Source: an uncultured bacterium | GTDB taxonomy: Bacteria > Verrucomicrobiota > Verrucomicrobiia > CAIQCK01 | Assembly: GCA_903870275.1 (NCBI GenBank) | Contig: CAIQCK010000103.1 | Span: 3,819-67,818 of the forward strand | Direction of reading: 5' to 3' | Length of the DNA stretch: 64,000 nt | Shown here: piece by piece, positions 4,376 to 57,192 of the stretch | Numbering within the stretch: position 1 is the stretch's first letter | Layout of the letters: every line of letters begins with the position of its first letter | Made by a program: the position numbers and the translations under genes | The notes under the pieces: model-generated | Databases searched by the model: none | The model's input: the letters and a program-made list of their open reading frames with translations, nothing else | What the model was told of the DNA's origin: nothing

Positions 4376-4420
4376 CTTCGTCCATGTGTTTTTTAGTCGC
4401 CGACGTGTAGCCACCGACGC

Positions 4421-4490
4421 GTAGCCGCCGACGTGAGGAGGCGGAAAGGTCGTGACTGAAAAACATTCGCCTCCTTACGTCGGCGGCTAC
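4421..4490. repeat. REP-like inverted repeat (type B 23-mer GTAGCCGCCGACGTRAGGAGGCG)
   Basis: Arm 4421-4443 and arm 4468-4490 are reverse complements with one G/A difference (a G-U pair in RNA) and a 24-nt spacer. They are preceded by two degenerate 14-bp units (4398-4420). A third copy of the 23-mer lies at 27010-27032. Confidence 0.8.
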
Positions 4491-4539
4491 GGTTCGTCCT
4501 CGTCTCGTGCTACGCGTGAAAAAACGGGGCCAGTCAAAA

Positions 4540-4570
4540 ATCCGTGTTCCATCCGTGTTCCATCCGTGGC
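4540..4570 (+). repeat. 11-bp tandem repeat ATCCGTGTTCC x2.8 abutting the mutS start
   Basis: The sequence reads atccgtgttcc atccgtgttcc atccgtggc and ends 4 nt before the ATG at 4575. Confidence 0.85.
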
Positions 4571-4574
4571 TAAT

Positions 4575-7142
4575 ATGCCGCCAGTGACAACGACACCTGA
4601 TCCCAGCCTGACGCCCATGATGCAGCAGTATCGCCGCATCAAGCGGGAAATCCCCGCCGACGCGCTGCTCTTGTTCCGGCTGGGCGATTTTTACGAGATG
4701 TTTTTCGACGACGCAAAGTCCGGCGCGCAGACGCTCAACCTCACCCTCACCCACCGCAACCACGTCCCGATGTGCGGCATCCCGCATCACGCCGCCGAGG
4801 GCTACATCAGCCGCCTCCTGCGCGCGGGCCGCAAGGTCGCCATCTGCGACCAGATGGAGGAGCCGCGCCCCGGCCAGCTCGTGAAACGCGAGATTTCCCA
4901 AATCCTCAGTCCCGGCGCGCACTTCGACGGCCGGATGCTCGACGCCTCCCGCAACAACTACCTCGCCGCGCTCAGCACCGACGGCAAACGCTTCGGCTTC
5001 GCCCTCGTGGACCTGACCACCGGCGACTTCAGGCTGACGGAGCTGGACTCCGCCGAATTGCTCGCGCACGAACTGACGCGCACGCGGCCCGCGGAGGTCG
5101 TCGCGCCGGCGGCCAAGGTCGAGGAGTTGTCGAAGCTGCTGACCGATTCCCGCGTGATGATCACCGGCCACGAGGACTGGGTGTTCGAAAACCAGACGGC
5201 GTTCTTCACGCTGCGCGACCATTTCAAGACGCAATCGCTCGACGGCTTCGGCTGCGCGGGGATGACGCTCGGCATCGGCGCGGGCGGCGCGGCGCTCTAC
5301 TATCTCCAGAACGTCCTCCGCCGAAACGTCAGCCACATCCGCCGCCTGCAAGTGTATCAAACCGCTGAGTTCCTGGTGCTCGACTCGATCTCGCAGCGGA
5401 ACCTCGAACTGGTCGAGCCGCTCCGCCCCGACGCGCCAAAGAACTCCACGCTCTTCGCCGCGCTCAACCGCACCGCCACAGCGATGGGCGCGCGGCTGTT
5501 GCGTGAGTGGATCACGCATCCGTTGCGCAACGCCGAGGCCATCCGCGCGCGGCAAAAGGTGGTCTTCGAGTTCCACGACATGACCGACGTGCTCGCGGAC
5601 TTTCGCGACCAGCTCAGCCTCGTGCGCGACCTGGAGCGAACGCTCGCCCGGCTCACCGCCGGCAGCGGCAACGCTCGCGACCTGCTCGGCCTGAAGGAAT
5701 CGCTCGCCGCCCTGCCCCTCTTGAAGAGCATCGTCGAGCCGCTCGCCTCGCCGCTGGCGCTGACGTTGCGCGGCTCCATCATCGAACTGCCCGACACGTG
5801 CGACCTTGTCCAACGCGCCATCACCGACGAGCCGCCGTTTACGCTCAGCGACGGCGGCGTCATCCGCGAAGGCTTCAGCCCGGAGCTGGACGAAATCCGC
5901 CGCGCGTCCAAGGAGGGCAAGGAGTGGATCGCCAAGCTCCAGCAGGACGAGATCGAGCGCACCGGCATTTCGTCGCTGAAGGTCCGCTACAACTCCGTCT
6001 TCGGCTACTTCATCGAGGTCACCAAGTCCAACCTCGCCAAGGTTCCCGACAACTACACCCGCAAACAGACCGTCGCCACCGGCGAGCGGTTCATCACGCC
6101 GGAGTTGAAGGAGGTCGAGGGCAAAATCCTCGGCGCGGACGAGCGCGCGGCGAAGCTGGAGGTGGAGTTGTTCCATCAGGTCCGCGCGAAGGTGCTGGAG
6201 CAGACCGCCGCCATCCAACAGACCGCCTCGGCCGTCGCCCACCTCGACGTGCTGGCCGGCTTCGCCGAACTGGCGCGGCACCAGAACTACCATTGTCCGG
6301 AGGTCAACGAGGAGGCGCGCATCGAGATCCGCGACGGCCGCCATCCGGTCGTCGAGCAGCTCATGACCGAAGAGCGGTTCGTGCCCAACGACACCGTCAT
6401 GAACGGCTCCGAGGCGCGCGTGCTGGTCATCACCGGCCCGAACATGGCCGGCAAGAGCACCTACATCCGGCAGGTGGCGCTCTTGGTGCTCATGGCGCAG
6501 ATCGGCTCGTGGATTCCCGCTGCCAAGGCCACCGTCGGCATCGTGGACCGCATCTTCACCCGCGTCGGCGCCAGCGACGACCTCGTGCGCGGCCAGAGCA
6601 CGTTCATGGTGGAGATGAACGAGACCGCCAACATCCTCAACAACGCCACCGCCAAGAGCCTCGTCATCCTCGACGAGATCGGCCGCGGCACCAGCACGTT
6701 CGACGGCCTCTCCATCGCGTGGTCGGTCGCCGAGCACCTGCACAACGAGGTCAAGGCCAAGACGCTCTTCGCCACGCACTATCACGAGCTGACCGAACTG
6801 GCCCGCACCTGTTCCGCCGTCAAGAACTACAACGTCGCCGTCCGCGAGTGGAGCGACCAGATCATCTTCATCCGCAAGATCGTCGAGGGCGGCACCGACA
6901 AGAGCTACGGCATCCACGTCGCCCGCCTCGCCGGCCTCCCCCGCCCCGTCATCGAGCGCGCCAAGGAAATCCTCCGCAACCTCGAGGAGAGCGAACTGAC
7001 CCCCGAAGGCCAGCCCAAGATCGCCCAGCACGAGCACGGCCGGGGGAAAGCCGGAACGCGAAAGGCGAAAGGCGGAACCAAGCCCGCCAAAGTCAGCGAG
7101 CCGCCCCCGCAGATGTTTTTGTTCGGGGATAAGGTGAAATGA
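4575..7142 (+). CDS. mutS: DNA mismatch repair protein MutS
   Basis: N-terminus TPMMQQYRRIKRE...LFRLGDFYEMFFDDA, Walker A GPNMAGKSTYIRQ, and STFMVEMNETANIL...DEIGRGTSTFDGLSIAW. Start set at the ATG at 4575, because the 41 codons upstream translate the REP hairpin and the tandem repeat. Confidence 0.97.
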   Translation: MPPVTTTPDPSLTPMMQQYRRIKREIPADALLLFRLGDFYEMFFDDAKSGAQTLNLTLTHRNHVPMCGIPHHAAEGYISRLLRAGRKVAICDQMEEPRPGQLVKREISQILSPGAHFDGRMLDASRNNYLAALSTDGKRFGFALVDLTTGDFRLTELDSAELLAHELTRTRPAEVVAPAAKVEELSKLLTDSRVMITGHEDWVFENQTAFFTLRDHFKTQSLDGFGCAGMTLGIGAGGAALYYLQNVLRRNVSHIRRLQVYQTAEFLVLDSISQRNLELVEPLRPDAPKNSTLFAALNRTATAMGARLLREWITHPLRNAEAIRARQKVVFEFHDMTDVLADFRDQLSLVRDLERTLARLTAGSGNARDLLGLKESLAALPLLKSIVEPLASPLALTLRGSIIELPDTCDLVQRAITDEPPFTLSDGGVIREGFSPELDEIRRASKEGKEWIAKLQQDEIERTGISSLKVRYNSVFGYFIEVTKSNLAKVPDNYTRKQTVATGERFITPELKEVEGKILGADERAAKLEVELFHQVRAKVLEQTAAIQQTASAVAHLDVLAGFAELARHQNYHCPEVNEEARIEIRDGRHPVVEQLMTEERFVPNDTVMNGSEARVLVITGPNMAGKSTYIRQVALLVLMAQIGSWIPAAKATVGIVDRIFTRVGASDDLVRGQSTFMVEMNETANILNNATAKSLVILDEIGRGTSTFDGLSIAWSVAEHLHNEVKAKTLFATHYHELTELARTCSAVKNYNVAVREWSDQIIFIRKIVEGGTDKSYGIHVARLAGLPRPVIERAKEILRNLEESELTPEGQPKIAQHEHGRGKAGTRKAKGGTKPAKVSEPPPQMFLFGDKVK

Positions 7143-8259: not shown

Positions 8260-9405
8260 ATGCTTATGAAACGAATCACCGCCACCACGGTCGCGCTTTG
8301 GTTCCTGACCTCCGTGCTGTCAGCCTCGGACGGGACGGCGCCGACCGATGTGCCGCAGATTCCGCTGTGCATGATCGGCGACAGCATTACCTGGGCGGGC
8401 GAAGGCGATTACTGGCGGCAGGATCTCCTGGAGCAGCTTCCCGCGCTGGCTTTTGTCGGCACGCACACGGCCAAGCTCGGCTACAGCCACGCGGGCGAAG
8501 GCGGCAACGGCACGCGGGCCGTGCTCGCGCGCCTCGGCGATATCCCGGATTGTCCATACTACTCGCTGCACATCGGCACCAACGACAACAACCTCAAGGA
8601 CGCGTCCGCCATCGAGTCGCACGCCGCCGCCACCGCGGACCGCATCGTCGCCATCGTGCAGGGGCTGTTGAAGAAGCCGTCGGTGCGAAAGGTGTTCCTG
8701 TGCAGCATTCTCCCCTGCCAGACGGACAACCCGTTGCGGGACCGGACCAACGCCGCGACCAACGTGGTGTTGCGACAGAAGATGGCGGCGTTTCCCAAGG
8801 ACAAGGTGGTTTGGGTGGAACTGGAGAAGCCCGTCCGCGCCATCGAGAACTGGGGTCCGATGATCAAGCTGCACCCGACGCAGGAAGGATACAAGGTGAT
8901 GGGGAAGCTGCTGGCCGATGCCATCGCCGCGGCCCTCGGCGTGCAGGATCGCGCCGCCGTGCCGAAACCGCGGCCCGGTTGCGGCGTGCGGGTGGAGAAT
9001 CTTTGGGACGGCGGCGGCAACGGTCGCACGCGTGCGCCGATCATCGCCGGCTGGTATACGGCGTCGTTCGACGTGGTGCGCGCGGCCGGGCCGAAGGCCA
9101 CGGTGACGATCCGCGGCGAACTTCCGCCCGCAAAGGACCCCAAAACCGTGCAGCACGCATTCAACCAGTCATTCCCCGTGGCCTCCGGGGACGCCGGCAA
9201 GCGCGTCACGGTCAACTTCTTCACGGAACACGAGGGCTACAAATACACGCGCTCGCCGTTGGCGTTGACGGCCTCCGGATGCGAGATCACGAAAATCCTG
9301 GTCGAGAAGCGGCGGCCATCCGGCAAAGCCTCCACCTACGGCCAAGGCTCGTATGTGGACACCGCGACCGCACCCCTGCCCGGCGAACTTGTGGAACGAC
9401 CGTAA
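8260..9405 (+). CDS. secreted SGNH/GDSL hydrolase with a C-terminal beta-rich domain
   Basis: Signal peptide MLMKRITATTVALWFLTSVLSA. SGNH blocks GDSITWAG, GEGGNGT, HIGTNDNN and a LHPTQEGY-type block V. Start moved from 8155 to the Met preceding the signal peptide. Confidence 0.8.
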   Translation: MLMKRITATTVALWFLTSVLSASDGTAPTDVPQIPLCMIGDSITWAGEGDYWRQDLLEQLPALAFVGTHTAKLGYSHAGEGGNGTRAVLARLGDIPDCPYYSLHIGTNDNNLKDASAIESHAAATADRIVAIVQGLLKKPSVRKVFLCSILPCQTDNPLRDRTNAATNVVLRQKMAAFPKDKVVWVELEKPVRAIENWGPMIKLHPTQEGYKVMGKLLADAIAAALGVQDRAAVPKPRPGCGVRVENLWDGGGNGRTRAPIIAGWYTASFDVVRAAGPKATVTIRGELPPAKDPKTVQHAFNQSFPVASGDAGKRVTVNFFTEHEGYKYTRSPLALTASGCEITKILVEKRRPSGKASTYGQGSYVDTATAPLPGELVERP

Positions 9406-9503
9406 ACGCTGGCGACAGATTTACCCGGCGCTGATAGAAATCTCTGCAAAAGCCGTTGTCCACACTGTAGCGGCGGTCCCATGAAAATAATAGCAAGTTT
9501 CTC

Positions 9504-9532
9504 TTGACATATAGAGAAAGTATCTATATGTT
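9504..9532 (+). promoter_or_regulatory. sigma70-like promoter candidate (TTGACA-17 nt-TATGTT)
   Basis: Perfect -35 TTGACA at 9504-9509 inside a short AT-rich island (9481-9535) in otherwise GC-rich DNA. A -10-like TATGTT lies at 9527-9532 (alternative TATATG at 9525-9530). No annotated gene follows for about 760 nt. Confidence 0.45.
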
Positions 9533-10059
9533 CTTCCCGCCATGAATTGGACCGGCACGCGGGCGCAGACCCTCCGGCCGGGAGCCGGCGGCGGCAACCC
9601 GGAGGCCGGCCCGAGCCATCCGCGGATGGTTGCGGGCACCGGCCTCGTGCCGCCATCCAAGACCCGGCCCGGCCCCACAAGCCGGATGGTGACGGGCCAG
9701 ACGCCGCCGGCATGGACCACGGACGATCTGGCGGCCACGCCGCCTCTTGATGGCCCCAAGCGCCAGAACCGCCCCCAACGCGGACGGCTGCGGCTGGTGG
9801 CGGGACGATCATCCTCCCCATCCATCATCTGGGTCAATTTTTCAAAACGAACCCATATGATGGCCCCGGTCCAACCTGGAAAACATCGTTTTCCCGAAGA
9901 AAACCCGGGGTTCGATGCCCGAGGGCCGGGGAATTCAAAAGGTGTTTTTACGAAACGAAGCCAAATGAAAGGAGGCTCATGTCAGGGAATGATACGGTTC
10001 GGAGTTGGCCTTGCCCGGTAGCGGCGGTAGCGGCAAAGCGTCTCCAACCCGCTCGCTCG

Positions 10060-10170
10060 GTCAAGGTTCGGTCAAAGCCAGTCAAAGTGAAAACGCCCAA
10101 AAATAATTTGGCCTAATCCGGGTTGATCCGGCTGCATCCGACCTGATCCGACTCAATCCAACAGAAACCG
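10060..10170 (+). repeat. helically phased short direct repeats (GTCAARG x3, then ATCCG-like x6 at exact 10-bp spacing)
   Basis: GTCAAG at 10060, then GTCAAAG at 10071 and 10081. ATCCG at 10116, 10126, 10136 and 10146, then ATCCA at 10156 and AACCG at 10166. Confidence 0.8.
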
Positions 10171-10301
10171 ACCCAGTGAAACCCATGAAACATTGCAAAC
10201 GCACGATGGCTGTGGCGGCGGAACAAAACCAAATCATGCCACCGAAGGGCAAACATTTCACCGAGACTTTCTGGCTGGTTGCCATTAGGATGGCGCCCGA
10301 C

Positions 10302-10817
10302 ATGAAACGGCTTCTCATTCTGCTCCTGTTCGCCGCTGCCGTGTCCGTGGGCGCGGTGGAGGTGGATGTCACGCTCAAGAACGGCAAGAAGGTGACGGGC
10401 GGCGTGCTGGTTGATAACGACCGCGAGATCATCATCCTCGTGCAGGCGTCCAACGGCGTTTACCGGCAGACGATCAAGAAAGCCGACGTTGCTGGGGTCA
10501 AAGAGCACGCCGCGCCGAAAGCCGGGCCGCCCGGCCCCGCGGACGTGGCACGGCTGCAAAAGAGCATCAAGGCCGCCGAGGAGGACGTGCGCCGGCGCGA
10601 GGCGGAGATCCCCATTGCCCAGAAGGCGCTGGATGATTTCTACGGCAGCCACCCCGACGCCAAGGCGGCAACGCTGGACAGGGAGCGGAAGTTGCGTGCG
10701 CGACTGGCGACGACTCGAACGCAAGTGGATATCGCCCGCTCCAAACTCAACGCACTCACCTTGGACCTCGGAGCGATGAGCCGCCAGTTGACCGAGCCGC
10801 CGCCGCAGGCGAAGTGA
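10302..10817 (+). CDS. secreted hypothetical protein with a C-terminal coiled-coil
   Basis: Start chosen at MKRLLILLLFAAAVSVGA (signal peptide) within ORF 10176..10817. A small beta-rich N-domain is followed by a heptad-like charged region (AEEDVRRREAEIPIAQKALDD...). Confidence 0.55.
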   Translation: MKRLLILLLFAAAVSVGAVEVDVTLKNGKKVTGGVLVDNDREIIILVQASNGVYRQTIKKADVAGVKEHAAPKAGPPGPADVARLQKSIKAAEEDVRRREAEIPIAQKALDDFYGSHPDAKAATLDRERKLRARLATTRTQVDIARSKLNALTLDLGAMSRQLTEPPPQAK

Positions 10818-12690: not shown

Positions 12691-13527
12691 ATGAACAACA
12701 CTCTAATGACGTGGAAAGACACGCTTGTGGATTTCCTCATCCGCAAGGGGTTCGACATCCTTGGCGCAATTGTCATCCTCATCATCAGCGCGATCCTGGC
12801 GCGCTGGCTTGGCAAGCAGATCGAGAACTGGCTCGCGAAGCAAAAGATGGAGTTGCCCATTCGCACGCTCATCGTGCGCGTCGTCAAGATGCTGGTGTTC
12901 GTGCTGGCCGGCGTGCTGGTGCTCGAGAAACTGGGCGTGGCGATCGGGCCGATGATCGCGGGCATCGGCGTGGCCGGCGCGGGCATCGCGCTGGCGCTGC
13001 AAGGCGTGCTGAGCAACGTCACCGCCGGGTTGCAGCTCATTCTCACCAAACGTTTCCACGTCGGCGAATACATTGAAATCCTCGGCGAGCGCGGACAAGT
13101 CCACAACATCGAGTTATTCTCCATGGTACTGATCCGGCCGGACGGGTCGCGGGCCGTCATCCCCAACAGAAAGATCATCGGCGAGATTTTTCACAACTAC
13201 GGCACAACCCGGCAAGCCAGCCTCAGCGTCGGCGTGGCTTACGATTCGGACATCCCTCTGGTGTTCTCCACGATTCGCGAAGTGCTTGACGCCAACCCGC
13301 GCGTCATGAAAGACCCCGCGGCGGGCATCGGCATCGCCTCGCTGGGTGAGAGCGCCATCAACATCGGCATTTCGCCCTGGGTCACTTTGCAGGATTACGG
13401 AGCGGCCCAGGAGGAAATTTACAAGGTCCTCATCGAGAAGTTCCGAGAGAAGCGCATCGTAATCCCGTGCCCCCGACGCGACGTCCGATTGTTGAACACG
13501 CCGGCGGGCGGCGCGGCCGCGGCGTAA
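12691..13527 (+). CDS. small-conductance mechanosensitive channel (MscS family)
   Basis: Three N-terminal TM helices, then GIGVAGAGIALALQGVLSNVTAGLQLILTKRFHVGEYIEI...IPNRKI. Start set at the ATG at 12691, behind a Shine-Dalgarno-like AAGGAG. Confidence 0.9.
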   Translation: MNNTLMTWKDTLVDFLIRKGFDILGAIVILIISAILARWLGKQIENWLAKQKMELPIRTLIVRVVKMLVFVLAGVLVLEKLGVAIGPMIAGIGVAGAGIALALQGVLSNVTAGLQLILTKRFHVGEYIEILGERGQVHNIELFSMVLIRPDGSRAVIPNRKIIGEIFHNYGTTRQASLSVGVAYDSDIPLVFSTIREVLDANPRVMKDPAAGIGIASLGESAINIGISPWVTLQDYGAAQEEIYKVLIEKFREKRIVIPCPRRDVRLLNTPAGGAAAA

Positions 13528-26792: not shown

Positions 26793-26845
26793 CCCGTCAG
26801 AAATCACGACGAAGCACGCAACCCTTGATATGACCGCCCTTCTTC

Positions 26846-26886
26846 GCTGTAGCGGCGGTCTCCAACCACCGAGCTGTTCATTATCA
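26846..26886. repeat. truncated REP-like element (type A, left arm plus loop only)
   Basis: gctgtagcggcggtctccaaccaccgagctgttcattatcaa matches the left arm and loop of the complete hairpin at 27059-27130. It stops exactly at the junction with the fabF fragment. Confidence 0.75.
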
Positions 26887-26999: not shown

Positions 27000-27009
27000 G
27001 CAGACGCCT

Positions 27010-27032
27010 GTAGCCGCCGACGTAAGGAGGCG
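27010..27032. repeat. REP-like 23-mer (type B), third copy
   Basis: gtagccgccgacgtaaggaggcg is identical to the reverse complement of 4468-4490. Confidence 0.8.
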
Positions 27033-27058
27033 GTCATGTTCGCATCCTCGATCTTTCC

Positions 27059-27130
27059 GCTGTAGCGGCGGTCTCCGACCGCCGAAATGTTCATCATCAA
27101 CAACCGGCGGTCAGAGACCGCCGCTACAGC
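27059..27130. repeat. REP-like hairpin (type A, complete)
   Basis: Arms gctgtagcggcggtctccgaccgccg (27059-27084) and cggcggtcagagaccgccgctacagc (27105-27130) form a 26-nt inverted repeat with one mismatch and a 20-nt loop. A partial copy (ctgtagcggcggtc) lies at 9465-9478. Confidence 0.85.
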
Positions 27131-27199
27131 CACCGCTTGTCCGCGTGACTTCCCCCGCCCCTTCTGGTAGAAACGCCGCCAAGGAGAGCGGCAGAGACG

Positions 27200-29605: not shown

Positions 29606-29639
29606 GTGAAGAGTTTGGAAATTCCGGCAACTCTTCACT
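29605..29639. terminator. stem-loop between convergent genes (bidirectional terminator candidate)
   Basis: AGTGAAGAGTT (29605-29615) pairs with AACTCTTCACT (29629-29639) around a 13-nt loop. A T-rich stretch (cttcattcttaactttt) follows. It sits between the stops at 29605 and 29655. Confidence 0.55.
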
Positions 29640-29654
29640 CTTCATTCTTAACTT

Positions 29655-30734
29655 TTAACTCTTCACTTTCCTTCCCGCCAGCTCCTCGTAGAGATCCTCC
29701 AGCCGCCGGGCCATCCGGTCGAGGCTGAAGCTCTCCACCACGTGCGCGCGGGCGGCGTCGGCGAGACGTTGCGCCAGAGCCCGGTCGCGCAACAGCCGCG
29801 CCACGGCCTCCGCCAGCGCCCCCACGTCGCCCGATTGCACCACAAGGCCGTCGCGCTCGTGCGTGACGATCTCGCGCAGACCGTCCACGTTCGTCACGAC
29901 CACCGGCCGCGCCATCGCCATCGCCTCCAGCACGGCCAGCCCCAATCCCTCCCACAAGGCCGGCAGCACCACCACCGCCGCCCGTGCCAGCACCGGCTGC
30001 ACGTCCGGCACCGTGCCGAGGAAGTTGACGCGGCTGCCGATCCCAAGCTGCCCGGCGCGTGTTTGCAGTTCATCTCGCAGCATGCCGCCGCCGGCCAGTT
30101 CGAGCCGCAGGTCGGGAAACTCGCTCAACAACCGCCGCATGGCCTCCAGCAGGATGCGGTGGCCCTTCTGCTGGGTGAAGTTGGCCACGCAGACGACCGG
30201 CCCGGCCGCCGGCAGCGGTTGCGGCGCGAATTTTCCGCAATCCACGCCGTTGTGAATCACCTCCAGCCGGCGCGCGTGCCGATACTCCGCCGCCACCGCG
30301 CTCGACACCGCCACGACCGCGTCCACGCGCCGCTCCACCCAGCGCCCCACCGGCCGCAGCCGGCGGTCATGCCGGTCGTAATAGCGGACATTGTGCTTGG
30401 TGGAGACAATCGCCCGCGTCCACGCCAGCCGCCCCGCCGCATAACCCAGAATGTCCGCCTGGATCAGATGCGTGTGCAGGACCTCGATCCGCTCCCGCTT
30501 CAGCAACTGCGCCAGCCGCCACGCCGGCCAGGGGTCGAACTTCTGTGTCGAGCGCAGATGGTGAACGCGGATGCCGGCCCGCTCCAGTTCCGCCGCCAGC
30601 GGCGCGTCGCCGTGAAGATAAGCCACCTGCGGCTCGACCTTGGTGCGGTCAAGGCGTGGCAGCACCGTCGTCAACAGGCGCTCGGCGCCACCGACGTTCA
30701 GCTCGGTAATAAAATTCAAGACGCGGCAAGGCAT
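29655..30734 (-). CDS. glycosyltransferase family 4 (GT-B, WaaG-like)
   Basis: N-terminus VLNFITELNVGGAERL and C-terminal EGLGLAVLEAMAMARPVVVTNVDGLREIV (E-x7-E region). Start at MPCRVLNF (30734). Confidence 0.9.
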   Translation of the reverse strand: MPCRVLNFITELNVGGAERLLTTVLPRLDRTKVEPQVAYLHGDAPLAAELERAGIRVHHLRSTQKFDPWPAWRLAQLLKRERIEVLHTHLIQADILGYAAGRLAWTRAIVSTKHNVRYYDRHDRRLRPVGRWVERRVDAVVAVSSAVAAEYRHARRLEVIHNGVDCGKFAPQPLPAAGPVVCVANFTQQKGHRILLEAMRRLLSEFPDLRLELAGGGMLRDELQTRAGQLGIGSRVNFLGTVPDVQPVLARAAVVVLPALWEGLGLAVLEAMAMARPVVVTNVDGLREIVTHERDGLVVQSGDVGALAEAVARLLRDRALAQRLADAARAHVVESFSLDRMARRLEDLYEELAGRKVKS

Positions 30735-31897: not shown

Positions 31898-31972
31898 TGG
31901 TGGGCGCTGTTGGGATTGAACCAACGACCCCTTGCGTGTGAAGCAAGTGCTCTCCCACTGAGCTAAGCGCCC
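31898..31972 (-). tRNA. tRNA-Val (anticodon CAC), CCA encoded
   Basis: Folded by hand. Acceptor GGGCGCT/AGCGCCC, D stem GCTC/GAGC, anticodon stem CTTGC/GCAAG with loop TTCACAC, T stem GTTGG/CCAAC with loop TTCAATC, discriminator A, then CCA. 75 nt. Confidence 0.92.
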
Positions 31973-55719: not shown

Positions 55720-57192
55720 TTATGGCGTCGGTTCGGGCGGATCTGGTTTCTTGGTCTTCGGCGCCGGCGACACGGGGGCGGACCCGACAGCAGGCTTGCG
55801 CAGTTTGTTCAGCGCCTCGGCGGCAAAGTGGCGCACGTCCCGATCTGTATCAATCAAGCAGGCGGTCAGTGGGTTGATGGCTCGCGTGTCCCCCAGCCTG
55901 CCCAGCGCCCAAGCGGCTTGGCAGCGGACCTGCTGATTCTTATCGTTCAAGCAAGCGATCAGCAGATCAACGGCTCGCTTGTCACCCAGCTTGCCCAACG
56001 CCCAAGCAGCTAGCCAGCGGACCTGCTGATTCTGGTCTTTCAAGCAAATGATCAGCGGCTCGACGGCTCGCTTGTCCCCCAGCTTGCCTAGGGACTCGGC
56101 AGAGTTACTGCGCACCGACCACGCTTCATCTTTCAGGCAGGCGATCAACGGTTCAACGGCCCGCACATCCCCCAAATCGCCCAACGCCGCGGCGGCAGGC
56201 CAAGACAGACGATTGTCCCGGTCTTGGTCCGTCAAGCAGGCGATCAGCGGCTCCAAAGCCCGCTTGTCCCCCACGTGGCCCAGCGCATGGGCGGCTATTC
56301 TGCGCACGACCCAATCCTGGTCTTTCAAGCAGGCGATCAACGGCTCGACGGCCCGTTCGTTCCCCGGTTTGCCCAGCGCCATGGCGGCATGCCAGCGCAT
56401 GACCTTGTCCTCATCCTTCAAACAGGCGATCAGATGCTCAACGGCTCGCACATCCTCCAGTTTGCCCAGGACCGAGATGGCGCCCCAGCGCATGTTCTCA
56501 TCTGGACCTTTCGAGCAGACAATGAGCGGCTCGACGACTGGCTTGCCCAGCTTGCCCAGCGCCTTGGCGGCGCCTGATCTCACACTCCGATCTTGATCTT
56601 TCAAACAGCCGATCAGCGGCTCGACGGCTGGTTTGCCCAACTTGCCCAGCGCCTCGGCGGTATGGTAGACTACATACAGTTCCTGATTCTTCATCAACTT
56701 CAAGCAGGCGATCAGCGGCTCGACGGCCCGCGCGTCTCCGAGTTTGCCCAGTGCCTCGGCGGCGACCCACCGCAGATTCTGATTCTGATCCTTCAAGCAA
56801 GCGATCAGAGGCTCAACGGCTTGTGCGTCTCCGAGTTTGCCCAACGCCTCGCCGGCGGCCCTGAACACCCTGTATTCTTGATCCTTCAGGCAGGCGATCA
56901 ACGGCTCAACTGCCCGCTTGTCCCCCAGTTTGCCCAGCGCCACAGCCGCACCCGCGCGCACACGCAAATCCGAATCCTTCAAGCAGGCGATCAACGGCCC
57001 GATGGCCCGCTTGTCGCCCAGGTCGCCCAGCGCATAAACCGCACTCTCGCGTCCAAAAAAGCCAAGCGGATCATTCAACTCGTTGATTCGTTCTTGAACG
57101 GTGTCGGTCGTTCCCACCGCCCCGGCCGCCGCAAGACTCATGCAAAGCGTTATTGAACGAATCAACGCCACGACAAAAGGCTTCACGTTCAT
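55720..57192 (-). CDS. exported HEAT-repeat (PBS-lyase HEAT-like) array protein
   Basis: Signal peptide MNVKPFVVALIRSITLCMSLAAAGA. About 13-14 consecutive units of ~31 aa, D-x-x-x-x-V-R-x-x-A-A-x-A-L-G-K-L-G-D-x-R-A-V-E-P-L-I-A-C-L-K. Confidence 0.9.
   Translation of the reverse strand: MNVKPFVVALIRSITLCMSLAAAGAVGTTDTVQERINELNDPLGFFGRESAVYALGDLGDKRAIGPLIACLKDSDLRVRAGAAVALGKLGDKRAVEPLIACLKDQEYRVFRAAGEALGKLGDAQAVEPLIACLKDQNQNLRWVAAEALGKLGDARAVEPLIACLKLMKNQELYVVYHTAEALGKLGKPAVEPLIGCLKDQDRSVRSGAAKALGKLGKPVVEPLIVCSKGPDENMRWGAISVLGKLEDVRAVEHLIACLKDEDKVMRWHAAMALGKPGNERAVEPLIACLKDQDWVVRRIAAHALGHVGDKRALEPLIACLTDQDRDNRLSWPAAAALGDLGDVRAVEPLIACLKDEAWSVRSNSAESLGKLGDKRAVEPLIICLKDQNQQVRWLAAWALGKLGDKRAVDLLIACLNDKNQQVRCQAAWALGRLGDTRAINPLTACLIDTDRDVRHFAAEALNKLRKPAVGSAPVSPAPKTKKPDPPEPTP
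55782..57060 (-). repeat. ~93-bp tandem coding repeats (HEAT units)
   Basis: Strings such as caagcaggcgatcagcggctcgacggc and ttgcccagcgcc recur with a period of about 93 bp across the gene. Confidence 0.8.

Follow-up and report, generated by a model that had tools for sequence, protein, structure and literature searches.

Do short repeats that follow one another at helical intervals upstream of a gene belong to the control of that gene? The question is raised by a 64,000-nt stretch of DNA (hereafter the window) from contig CAIQCK010000103.1 of an uncultured, high-GC freshwater member of the Verrucomicrobiia, in which two abutting arrays, array 1 (10060-10087) and array 2 (10116-10175), precede a 171-codon gene for a secreted protein (10302-10817). 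Both arrays lie in a gap of ~900 bp between this gene and one encoding a GDSL lipase (8260-9405), and both fall within a non-coding block of ~0.85 kb (about 9440-10285). On balance, our data favor the interpretation that the arrays are tandem-repeat modules of a mosaic, non-coding, promoter-carrying element of ~0.85 kb that was inserted recently and is dispersed in freshwater Verrucomicrobiia. They probably do not serve the secreted-protein gene as a control site of its own.

Insertion polymorphism and recurrence of the block

The host occurs as identical contigs in several lake metagenomes, and seven related contigs (L001-L007; loci and contigs are designated here by an L number) were 100% identical over the region and uninformative. 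The whole block is carried by a first tier of strain- or species-level relatives (L013-L016 and L103, 86-93% nucleotide identity). In a second tier of five metagenome-assembled genomes (MAGs; L008-L012), in which MutS is 89-94% and the GDSL lipase 82-85% identical, the block is absent from the junction between the lipase and secreted-protein genes: in L008 the lipase stop codon is 47 bp from the ATG, in L009 an unrelated segment of 290 bp fills the space, and in L010-L012 a different gene occupies it. These five retain just the proximal motif (TAGGATGGCGCC…ATG) that also stands before 10302 in the window, where it reads TAGGATGGCGCCCGAC (10286-10301), lies directly 5′ of the start codon, and marks the right edge of the insertion. 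Since the block is absent in the second tier, we regard it as a recent insertion and not as an ancestral control region of the secreted-protein gene. A preliminary description of the locus, made from the letters of the window alone, had counted absence or loss of phase of the array in close relatives against its own interpretation; this is half borne out, since the array is present and phased in the closest of them and absent from the next tier.

Within the first tier, array 2 has the same six units and is 93% identical, with site 1 reading ATCTG, site 5 a perfect ATCCGAC, and units 2-4 invariant. The spacer between the arrays (10088-10115) is 96-100% identical. Array 1 behaves as a variable-number tandem repeat, with three copies in the window and in L013, four in L103, and seven in L016. 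Divergence over 9971-10059 and 10088-10175 is ~5%, compared to ~11.5% for the third positions of codons in the downstream gene, which may indicate mild constraint around the arrays in this comparison of few sequences.

Related loci were gathered by a search with the spurious 159-aa open reading frame (ORF) called in the block and by a scan of metagenomes for three phased ATCCGRC/ATCCGAC cores. A BLAST search with the block recovered L184 (76% over 207 nt and 71% over 171 nt), where the same module order is found upstream of rpsA, and also L158, L180, L220, L223, and L105, each with different neighbors. The modules that recur at these unrelated freshwater Verrucomicrobiia loci are a promoter (P, 9504-9532 in the window), a module containing AAACGAASCCAAAT (module A), GTC(C)AAAG repeats, the decamer array, and a tail (TGAAAC…CATTGCAAAYGCACGATG). 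P is preserved almost base for base at L105 54-90, L158 1809-1840, L180 10268-10235, L184 11048-11015, L220 4197-4165, and L223 1782-1815. In the window and L184 the order is P, module A, array 1, array 2, tail; in L180, L223, L220, and L158 it is P, purine-rich 7/8-bp repeats, array 2, (tail), module A; and L105 has P and module A only.

At all six loci with both modules, the decamer array lies on the P-sense strand, 110-600 nt downstream of P, with no intervening gene. The element faces a convergent gene on the L158, L220, L180, L105, and P0030 contigs, so P seems to serve the element itself, which has the appearance of a stand-alone unit. Unit variants follow an order common to the loci (AATCCGGYT, then CGATCCGACT, then NAATCCGACY, including the window, L158, L180, L200, and L223), indicating that whole arrays are related by descent and did not arise by independent slippage. 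The number of array-2 units is constant at six in close strains and ranges from three to eight at homologous loci, and array-1-like repeats stand ahead of the decamer array in L184, L151, and L138. GTAG-tagged repetitive extragenic palindromes (REPs) and a REP-type miniature inverted-repeat transposable element (MITE) are physically mixed with the family units. Peat-bog contigs (L119, L140, and L151) show the same motifs and the same layout of array 1, spacer, and array 2 in much more distant sequence. The block thus very probably belongs to a dispersed element family.

Sequence of the arrays and composition of the block

Array 1 consists of GTCAAG at 10060 and GTCAAAG at 10071 and 10081 (spacings of 11 and 10), and array 2 of six decamers of the form NR-ATCCGRCY with a period of exactly 10: ATCCG starts at 10116, 10126, 10136, and 10146, followed by the degenerate ATCCA at 10156 and AACCG at 10166. 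The A/T-rich spacer between them, TGAAAACGCCCAAAAATAATTTGGCCTA, has 28 nt, 12 of which are A. A base-by-base check bore out the coordinates given in the preliminary description, along with the six sites at exact 10-bp spacing, the A-rich spacer, and the ~130 nt that separate the last repeat from the ATG at 10302. Its placement of the sites on one face of the helix holds roughly, but a strict 10-bp period drifts by ~17 degrees per unit at 10.5 bp per turn. Across 51 units from the window and homologous arrays, the array-2 unit reads N-R-A-T-C-C-G-R-C-Y, with eight of its ten positions informative.

These arrays are real and not chance products. Array 2 is the sole four-fold run of an identical pentamer at periods of 7-15 in the window, and such a run appeared in none of 300 first-order Markov simulations of the window. 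Phased triple pentamer runs numbered eight in the window, compared to 1.7 ± 1.3 expected from the simulations, and three of them are non-coding: array 2, another ATCCG array, and a CCGAC repeat associated with a REP at 4400. Tandem Repeats Finder called just 2.9 copies of TGATCCGACC in array 2 because the copies are degenerate. The array has more C than G (C/G 1.6-1.9, with window extremes reaching 4.4) and is A-rich.

Two further suggestions of the preliminary description concerned DNA curvature and additional arrays. Phased A-tracts are confined to the 28-bp spacer (A4 at 10090, A5 at 10099, then AATTT), and an A-tract search found no A/T run of four or more in either array, so intrinsic curvature of the arrays is not borne out. 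The search of the window for more phased ATCCG arrays did find one, ATCCGTGTTCC at 4540-4568, but with a period of 11 and only 2.6 copies. It is preceded by CCAGTCAAA and ends 6 nt before the mutS ATG (4575), a start codon that has no Shine-Dalgarno (SD) sequence before it. The mutS upstream region (4376-4575) as a whole contains 2.6 copies of CCGACGYGTAGCC (4400-4435), a long GTAG-tagged hairpin (~4419-4493), and then the two sequences just named; L008 lacks all of these features, the array at 4540-4568 included.

The modules of the block all read on the plus strand. Its left edge is half of a GTAG-tagged REP/MITE palindrome (…CTGCAAAAGCCGTTGTCCACACTGTAGCGGCGGTC; 9440-9478), identified from relatives and REP copies; L013 and L015 have the whole palindrome there, with 22-bp arms and 67 nt extra. 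P (TTGACA-17-TATGTT) is a near-consensus sigma-70 promoter that reads toward the arrays, with 10 of 12 matches in a promoter scan for which shuffled sequence gave an expectation of 0.1 sites, and it is 95-98% conserved among relatives. It holds an internal inverted repeat (CATATAGA-N7-TCTATATG) and is always followed 9-12 nt later by an ATG and then by a repeat-rich body that does not code for protein. It has the look of a portable promoter, or of the beginning of a non-coding RNA family not yet described. In L180 (10105-10208) and L223 (1835-1933), ~15 copies of a purine-rich GAAGTCRG repeat come straight after the promoter, and the GTCGGA at their center reads as the reverse complement of TCCGAC, the core of the downstream decamers in the same unit.

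Downstream of P in the window is a GC-rich variable body (9540-9830), which diverges about neutrally, folds better than shuffled sequence (z = -3.0), and holds the 159-aa ORF called by gene-prediction pipelines (9542-10021). Module A (9840-9970), recognized by a cross-locus motif search, has two copies of AAACGAASCCAAAT (9844-9863 and 9948-9966), each with a T-run before it, around the hairpin GGAAAACATCGTTTTCC (9878-9894); its 10-sequence alignment shows conserved ends and no convincing covariation. As a 14-17-mer, usually preceded by a T-run, AAACGAASCCAAAT occurs two or three times ~100 nt apart in distant lineages (L158, at 2208, 2313, and ~2420; L180, L220, L223, L105, L184, L119, L140, and L151). 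The conserved linker that follows (9971-10059, 93-95% identical in relatives, compared to ~88.5% at third codon positions) takes in a strong SD-like AAAGGAGG (9968-9975) as well as the first part of a 45-codon ORF (9979-10116). UGAUCCGGCUGC could conceivably be complementary to the 16S 3′ region; the window itself contains no 16S gene. Beyond array 2, a conserved tail (TGAAAC…CATTGCAAACGCACGATG; 10177-10208) is shared with L013, L016, L103, L184, and L180, and is split by a MITE in L223.

The block is non-coding. In the 159-aa ORF, the called frame has 8 synonymous and 26 non-synonymous changes, compared to 6/28 and 8/25 in the other two frames, with no excess, and the ORF has no Pfam hit. The 45-aa ORF was likewise rejected as coding: a change in the number of GTCAAAG copies breaks the frame and yields three different C-termini, and all of its substitutions are non-synonymous. 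Public gene calls in this region look wrong, with a "protein" of 159-187 aa called on the non-coding body of the element and an N-terminal extension of 31-39 residues added to the downstream protein (202-210 aa, start at 10185), an extension that more distant homologues do not have. The downstream gene itself, taken from the ORF list, encodes 171 aa with a signal-peptide-like N-terminus and has no Pfam family above cutoff; its homologues in Verrucomicrobiia MAGs (42-90% identity) start at an equivalent MK..LL. MAGs of this class are also the closest named genomes to the window.

Searches for structured RNA gave little within the block. Rfam comparisons of the window at the gathering threshold and of 9350-10400 at E values up to 10 returned only a chance match to rseX (E = 3.2) in the block region, and a lone tRNA gene (31901-31972, minus strand) was the sole match above threshold in the window. 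At the related loci, only an S-adenosylmethionine (SAM) riboswitch and Acido-Lenti-1 were found, both outside the arrays. Acido-Lenti-1 (RF01687) exceeded its gathering score at L184 11096-11140 and L158 13964-14009, both on the minus strand, the L184 copy being ~50 nt upstream of the element promoter. Plus-strand array RNA is less structured than shuffles (z = +1.2), and the minus-strand fold has z = -1.8. The promoter scan found no sigma-70-like promoter between 10176 and 10301 and no minus-strand promoter upstream of the array, and no plus-strand terminator marking a 3′ end was found. A minus-strand sponge of the CsrB/RsmZ type (CGGAU), which would display GGA motifs in the hairpin loops of an sRNA with a promoter and terminator of its own, finds no support, given the lack of an Rfam match or a minus-strand promoter, the weak fold, and the plus-strand orientation bias.

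Around the block, the flanking genes encode the GDSL lipase, the small secreted protein, a methyltransferase, a glycosyltransferase, MscS, and FIST. Two families of GTAG-tagged REP palindromes (CTGTAGCGGCGGTC… and GTAGCCGCCGACGTRAGGAGGCGG) have sites at 9463-9478, 26845-26860, 27050-27135, 27008-27035, and 4419-4442. Full palindrome copies form a doublet at 27050-27135, and the same REP makes up a MITE of ~125 bp at L223 2250-2385, with a 9-bp target duplication (ATTATAGAG). Other repeats of the window include ACTCTTC (5.4 copies, 29630-29667), whose flanking 78-nt segments reach the C/G and G/C extremes of the 64 kb, and overlapping arrays of 90-93-bp tandem repeats (~31-residue repeats; 55879-57051) in a minus-strand 490-aa ORF (55720-57192).

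Weighing explanations for the arrays

The 10-bp period is one of many at these loci and is not special: related loci are crowded with other tandem repeats, with periods of 7, 8, 9, and 10. The metagenome scan for three phased cores matched at least 120 contigs. In control scans of viral contigs, three copies of ATCCGAC gave 4 hits, compared to 12, 3, and 2 for three scrambled cores; the raw count therefore shows only that decamer tandem repeats are common, and it is just the homologous contexts, not hit numbers, that carry weight. ORFs beside arrays were generally sense (18) or antisense (10) with no clear bias outside the gene family described below.

If the arrays are modules of an inserted mosaic element, as we favor, the element would have entered between the GDSL-lipase and secreted-protein genes in the recent ancestry of the species. 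Replication slippage would make and resize the arrays, which would have spread as part of the element. P would transcribe them as an unstructured, G-poor, mildly C-rich stretch of non-coding RNA, and at this locus that RNA might extend into the secreted-protein gene and form a long leader for it. We consider the chances evenly balanced that transcription runs through the arrays. The conserved 8-nt core could be recognized, in several copies at once, by a sequence-specific factor whose gene lies elsewhere. That a specific protein binds this core is a tentative and somewhat doubtful suggestion, and if one does, DNA and RNA would be about equally likely as its target.

Several observations weigh against this interpretation. 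Self-comparison found no second copy of the block within the 64-kb window, and no terminal inverted repeats or clear target duplication were recognized for the whole block, the sole clear 9-bp duplication belonging to the nested REP-type MITE in L223. Dispersal within one genome is something we infer from metagenome contigs that cannot be assigned to a single genome, and the uniform orientation at six of six loci may reflect about four independent lineages. The apparent conservation of units 2-4 and the spacer above the neutral level fits function and not junk. On the minus strand of L119 (612-729), a SAM-I riboswitch and a thrC-like gene directly follow a promoter, and an A7 tract and five AATCCGACC decamers abut the -35 of that promoter; the array there is positioned where an activator array would sit.

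A possible binding partner comes from loci in which ATCCGAC decamers bracket genes for ~225-aa helical proteins (MNxTRNGKIARLP…) with weak similarity to Nu1 and Mu gp27. Thirteen such loci were recovered, and L226 (5969-6001), retrieved via the protein alone, has the same three decamers abutting the ATG. Genes of this kind are found in L195 (2562-2590), L205, L143, L169, L197, and L224, among others. The decamers invariably lie on the sense strand, either 3-142 nt ahead of the start or just past the stop of the gene; arrays abut the start codon, and the stop codon of a small upstream ORF falls inside the array. In L200 a Nu1-like gene is physically linked to a window-type array. The family has at least 1212 members, the named ones only from Chthoniobacterales MAGs. 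Matches of the family to Mu gp27 and to small terminases fall short of the threshold (Pfam E values of 0.016-0.2, PHROG terS 0.0017). An AlphaFold model with a mean predicted local distance difference test (pLDDT) score of 69.5 (88-95 for the N-terminal 60 residues) had no significant PDB or viral fold match, with no PDB sequence match either, and tblastn found no homologue in the window. We offer this family as a candidate lead, not as a demonstration, for the decamer binder. That these elements form a family of stand-alone, strongly promoted non-coding units with bodies composed mostly of short tandem repeats, whose decamer array would act as a multivalent decoy or assembly platform (as RNA or DNA) for a protein, with the Nu1/Mu-gp27-like family as best candidate, strikes us as quite improbable.

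The preliminary description had named cooperative regulator arrays and iterons, besides curved DNA, as settings in which such phasing is typical. As a DNA-level array, the six decamers, and perhaps the GTCAAAG repeats with the A-tract spacer bent, would be occupied by a regulator of the OmpR/PhoB/ArcA/CpxR or ParR type that controls the secreted-protein gene. Such a regulator might recognize direct repeats that combine an 8-nt core with 2 variable nt and recur strictly every 10 bp, and the (near-)invariance of units 2-4 and the spacer in relatives, the restriction of A-tracts to the spacer between the arrays, the L119 array abutting a -35, and the decamers around Nu1-like genes (in the 13 loci and L226) as a source for the binder are all in keeping with it. 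However, five close relatives lack the block at the orthologous promoter, the stretch between array 2 and the gene has no detected sigma-70-like promoter, the same arrays occur where no co-oriented gene follows, neither a regulator nor a Nu1-like gene is found in the window, the candidate's terminase/helix-turn-helix assignment is under every threshold, and these repeats have periods of 7-9 bp at least as often. We therefore rate such an operator as rather unlikely. Tandem protein binding remains compatible with an 8-nt core kept between copies and loci, but dedication to the secreted-protein gene finds no support, because the block is missing from the orthologous junction in those five relatives and its modules also stand upstream of rpsA and between convergent genes. 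The idea of replication-origin iterons, a partition site, or a DnaA-box cluster is effectively refuted. It could draw on two abutting direct-repeat arrays with an A/T-rich spacer, and some DnaA boxes begin with six bases similar to TGATCC. Yet the units are 10 bp and not 17-22 bp; no rep, par, dnaA, or dnaN gene is nearby; the single TTWTNCACA match in the 64 kb is at 13187, leaving no DnaA box within 3 kb; A/T content over 30 nt peaks at the promoter (9484) and not in an unwinding region beside the arrays; there is no GC-skew switch; and homologous arrays occur at several loci.

Other explanations place the function of the repeats in RNA or protein. A stand-alone non-coding RNA from P could serve as a platform or sponge, its single-stranded AUCCGRCY motifs binding multiple copies of, or a multimeric, RNA-binding protein, much as CsrB and RsmZ bind CsrA and triplet repeats bind TRAP. 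This would suit the consistent P-sense placement of the array downstream of P with no gene between, the units facing convergent genes where P appears to serve only the element, the weakly structured, A-rich plus strand with its surplus of C over G, and the position of arrays in the 5′ untranslated region at Nu1-like genes and mutS, on the sense strand and abutting the start codon. It sits poorly with the absence of an Rfam family match or a plus-strand terminator for a 3′ end and with the near-neutral evolution of the rest of the body, and we know of no RNA-binding protein that recognizes an AUCCGRCY motif; overall we judge this sponge to be distinctly unlikely. A Rho-utilization-like segment, at which the untranslated P transcript would end ahead of the secreted-protein gene, is very unlikely. 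In its favor, ~80-170 nt lack structure, C outnumbers G there, and C-rich units recur at regular intervals; six 10-nt units are about the size of the RNA site bound by the Rho hexamer, but the C/G ratio is modest next to the extremes of the window, other family members have G-rich repeats before the array and conserved modules hundreds of nt further downstream, and mutS and the Nu1-like genes carry only three units. Finally, it is exceedingly improbable that the repeats are coding, whether in the 45-aa ORF or in the N-terminal extension of the downstream protein. AAAGGAGG does lie 3 nt ahead of the ATG at 9979, and gene callers push the downstream protein into the tail region, but a 10-bp period cannot hold a reading frame, copy-number changes shift the frame to give the three C-termini, the small ORF has only non-synonymous substitutions, and in more distant homologues the downstream protein begins with the MK..LL signal peptide. 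Direct tests speak against an origin, against curvature, and against coding.

Comparison with known systems and wider significance

In their repeat structure, the arrays resemble the short tandemly repeated repetitive (STRR) heptamers that Mazel et al. reportedly described in cyanobacteria in 1990. Simple-sequence repeats of 7 bp have also been described upstream of Haemophilus influenzae hmw1A (PMC8262952, PMC12721329). As in these systems, non-coding units of 10 bp or less are arranged head to tail, with many different units in the same genomes, often in promoter or 5′-leader regions, and copy number varies between strains (3, 3, 4, and 7 for array 1). Here, by contrast, the period is 10 (and 11), not 7, and array 2 is no perfect, slippage-prone tract: its copies are degenerate, and 2-nt spacers that vary separate the conserved cores. 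The arrays also differ from both in traveling with a promoter and other modules.

Mosaic intergenic elements provide a second comparison, among them the bacterial interspersed mosaic elements (BIMEs) of E. coli, which are mosaics of REPs, the pneumococcal BOX elements (boxA-boxB(n)-boxC), and the Correia elements of Neisseria, which can carry promoters. Like these, the element is non-coding and modular, occurs at unrelated intergenic sites (L184, L158, L180, L220, L223, L105, and P0030), varies in the order and number of its modules and in the copy number of an internal one, and is present or absent at orthologous sites, with the 47-bp junction of L008 as an empty site. A further likeness lies in the GTAG-tagged REPs physically associated with the element, a class that has been described previously (PMC3733652). 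It differs from all three in that its near-consensus promoter reads into the element itself, and in that the whole block has no recognized terminal inverted repeats or target duplication and is single-copy in the window; its repeat unit is 10 bp, compared to 45 bp for boxB. The element is best filed as STRR-like tandem repeats inside a BIME/BOX-like mosaic element with a promoter.

Protein-binding arrays provide a third comparison. Tandem operators such as the F1-F3 sites of ompF, the GTAAA-N5-GTAAA of CpxR, and the 11-bp repeats of ArcA, as well as the ParR centromeres of R1 parC and pSK41 (10-bp repeats), repeat a short core head to tail about once per helical turn, in up to 6-10 units, and here the core ATCCGRCY recurs in six units at exactly 10 bp, in line with the 5-8-bp cores every 10-11 bp of such operators. 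In contrast to those systems, no cognate regulator or partition gene is near, the array is not conserved at the orthologous promoter, and it is also found at sites with no gene to control. Among small-terminase recognition repeats are the R sites of lambda cosB, upstream of Nu1, and the hexamer clusters that flank a central region in P1 pac. The window resembles P1 pac in having two repeat clusters around an A/T-rich spacer, and elsewhere three or more ATCCGAC decamers lie directly beside the gene weakly similar to Mu gp27 and small terminases, at the 13 metagenome loci and L226. Unlike terS systems, however, the window has no terS-like gene and no other phage genes adjoin its array, and the terminase assignment is sub-threshold by sequence and unsupported by the fold search.

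Literature searches for the motif strings and for tandem repeats in Verrucomicrobia turned up no account of such elements, and to our knowledge almost no regulatory DNA or RNA elements have been characterized in this phylum. The locus serves as a worked example that helically phased short repeats 5′ of a gene need not be the operator of that gene, since here they came with an inserted element. It also calls for a correction of annotation, as neither the 159-aa ORF nor the extended product of 202-210 aa is supported. Taken alone, the array is of moderate interest. The part worth following is the wider pattern of a portable promoter, repeat-built units, and a shared decamer, which points to an undescribed intergenic layer in Verrucomicrobia composed of a nearly invariant promoter, the recurring AAACGAASCCAAAT, and repeat families of 7-10 bp, with one decamer common to these units and to a large Chthoniobacterales gene family. 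If the decamer arrays do act as decoys or assembly platforms for such a protein, they would represent a repeat-built regulatory or titration system undescribed in any phylum.

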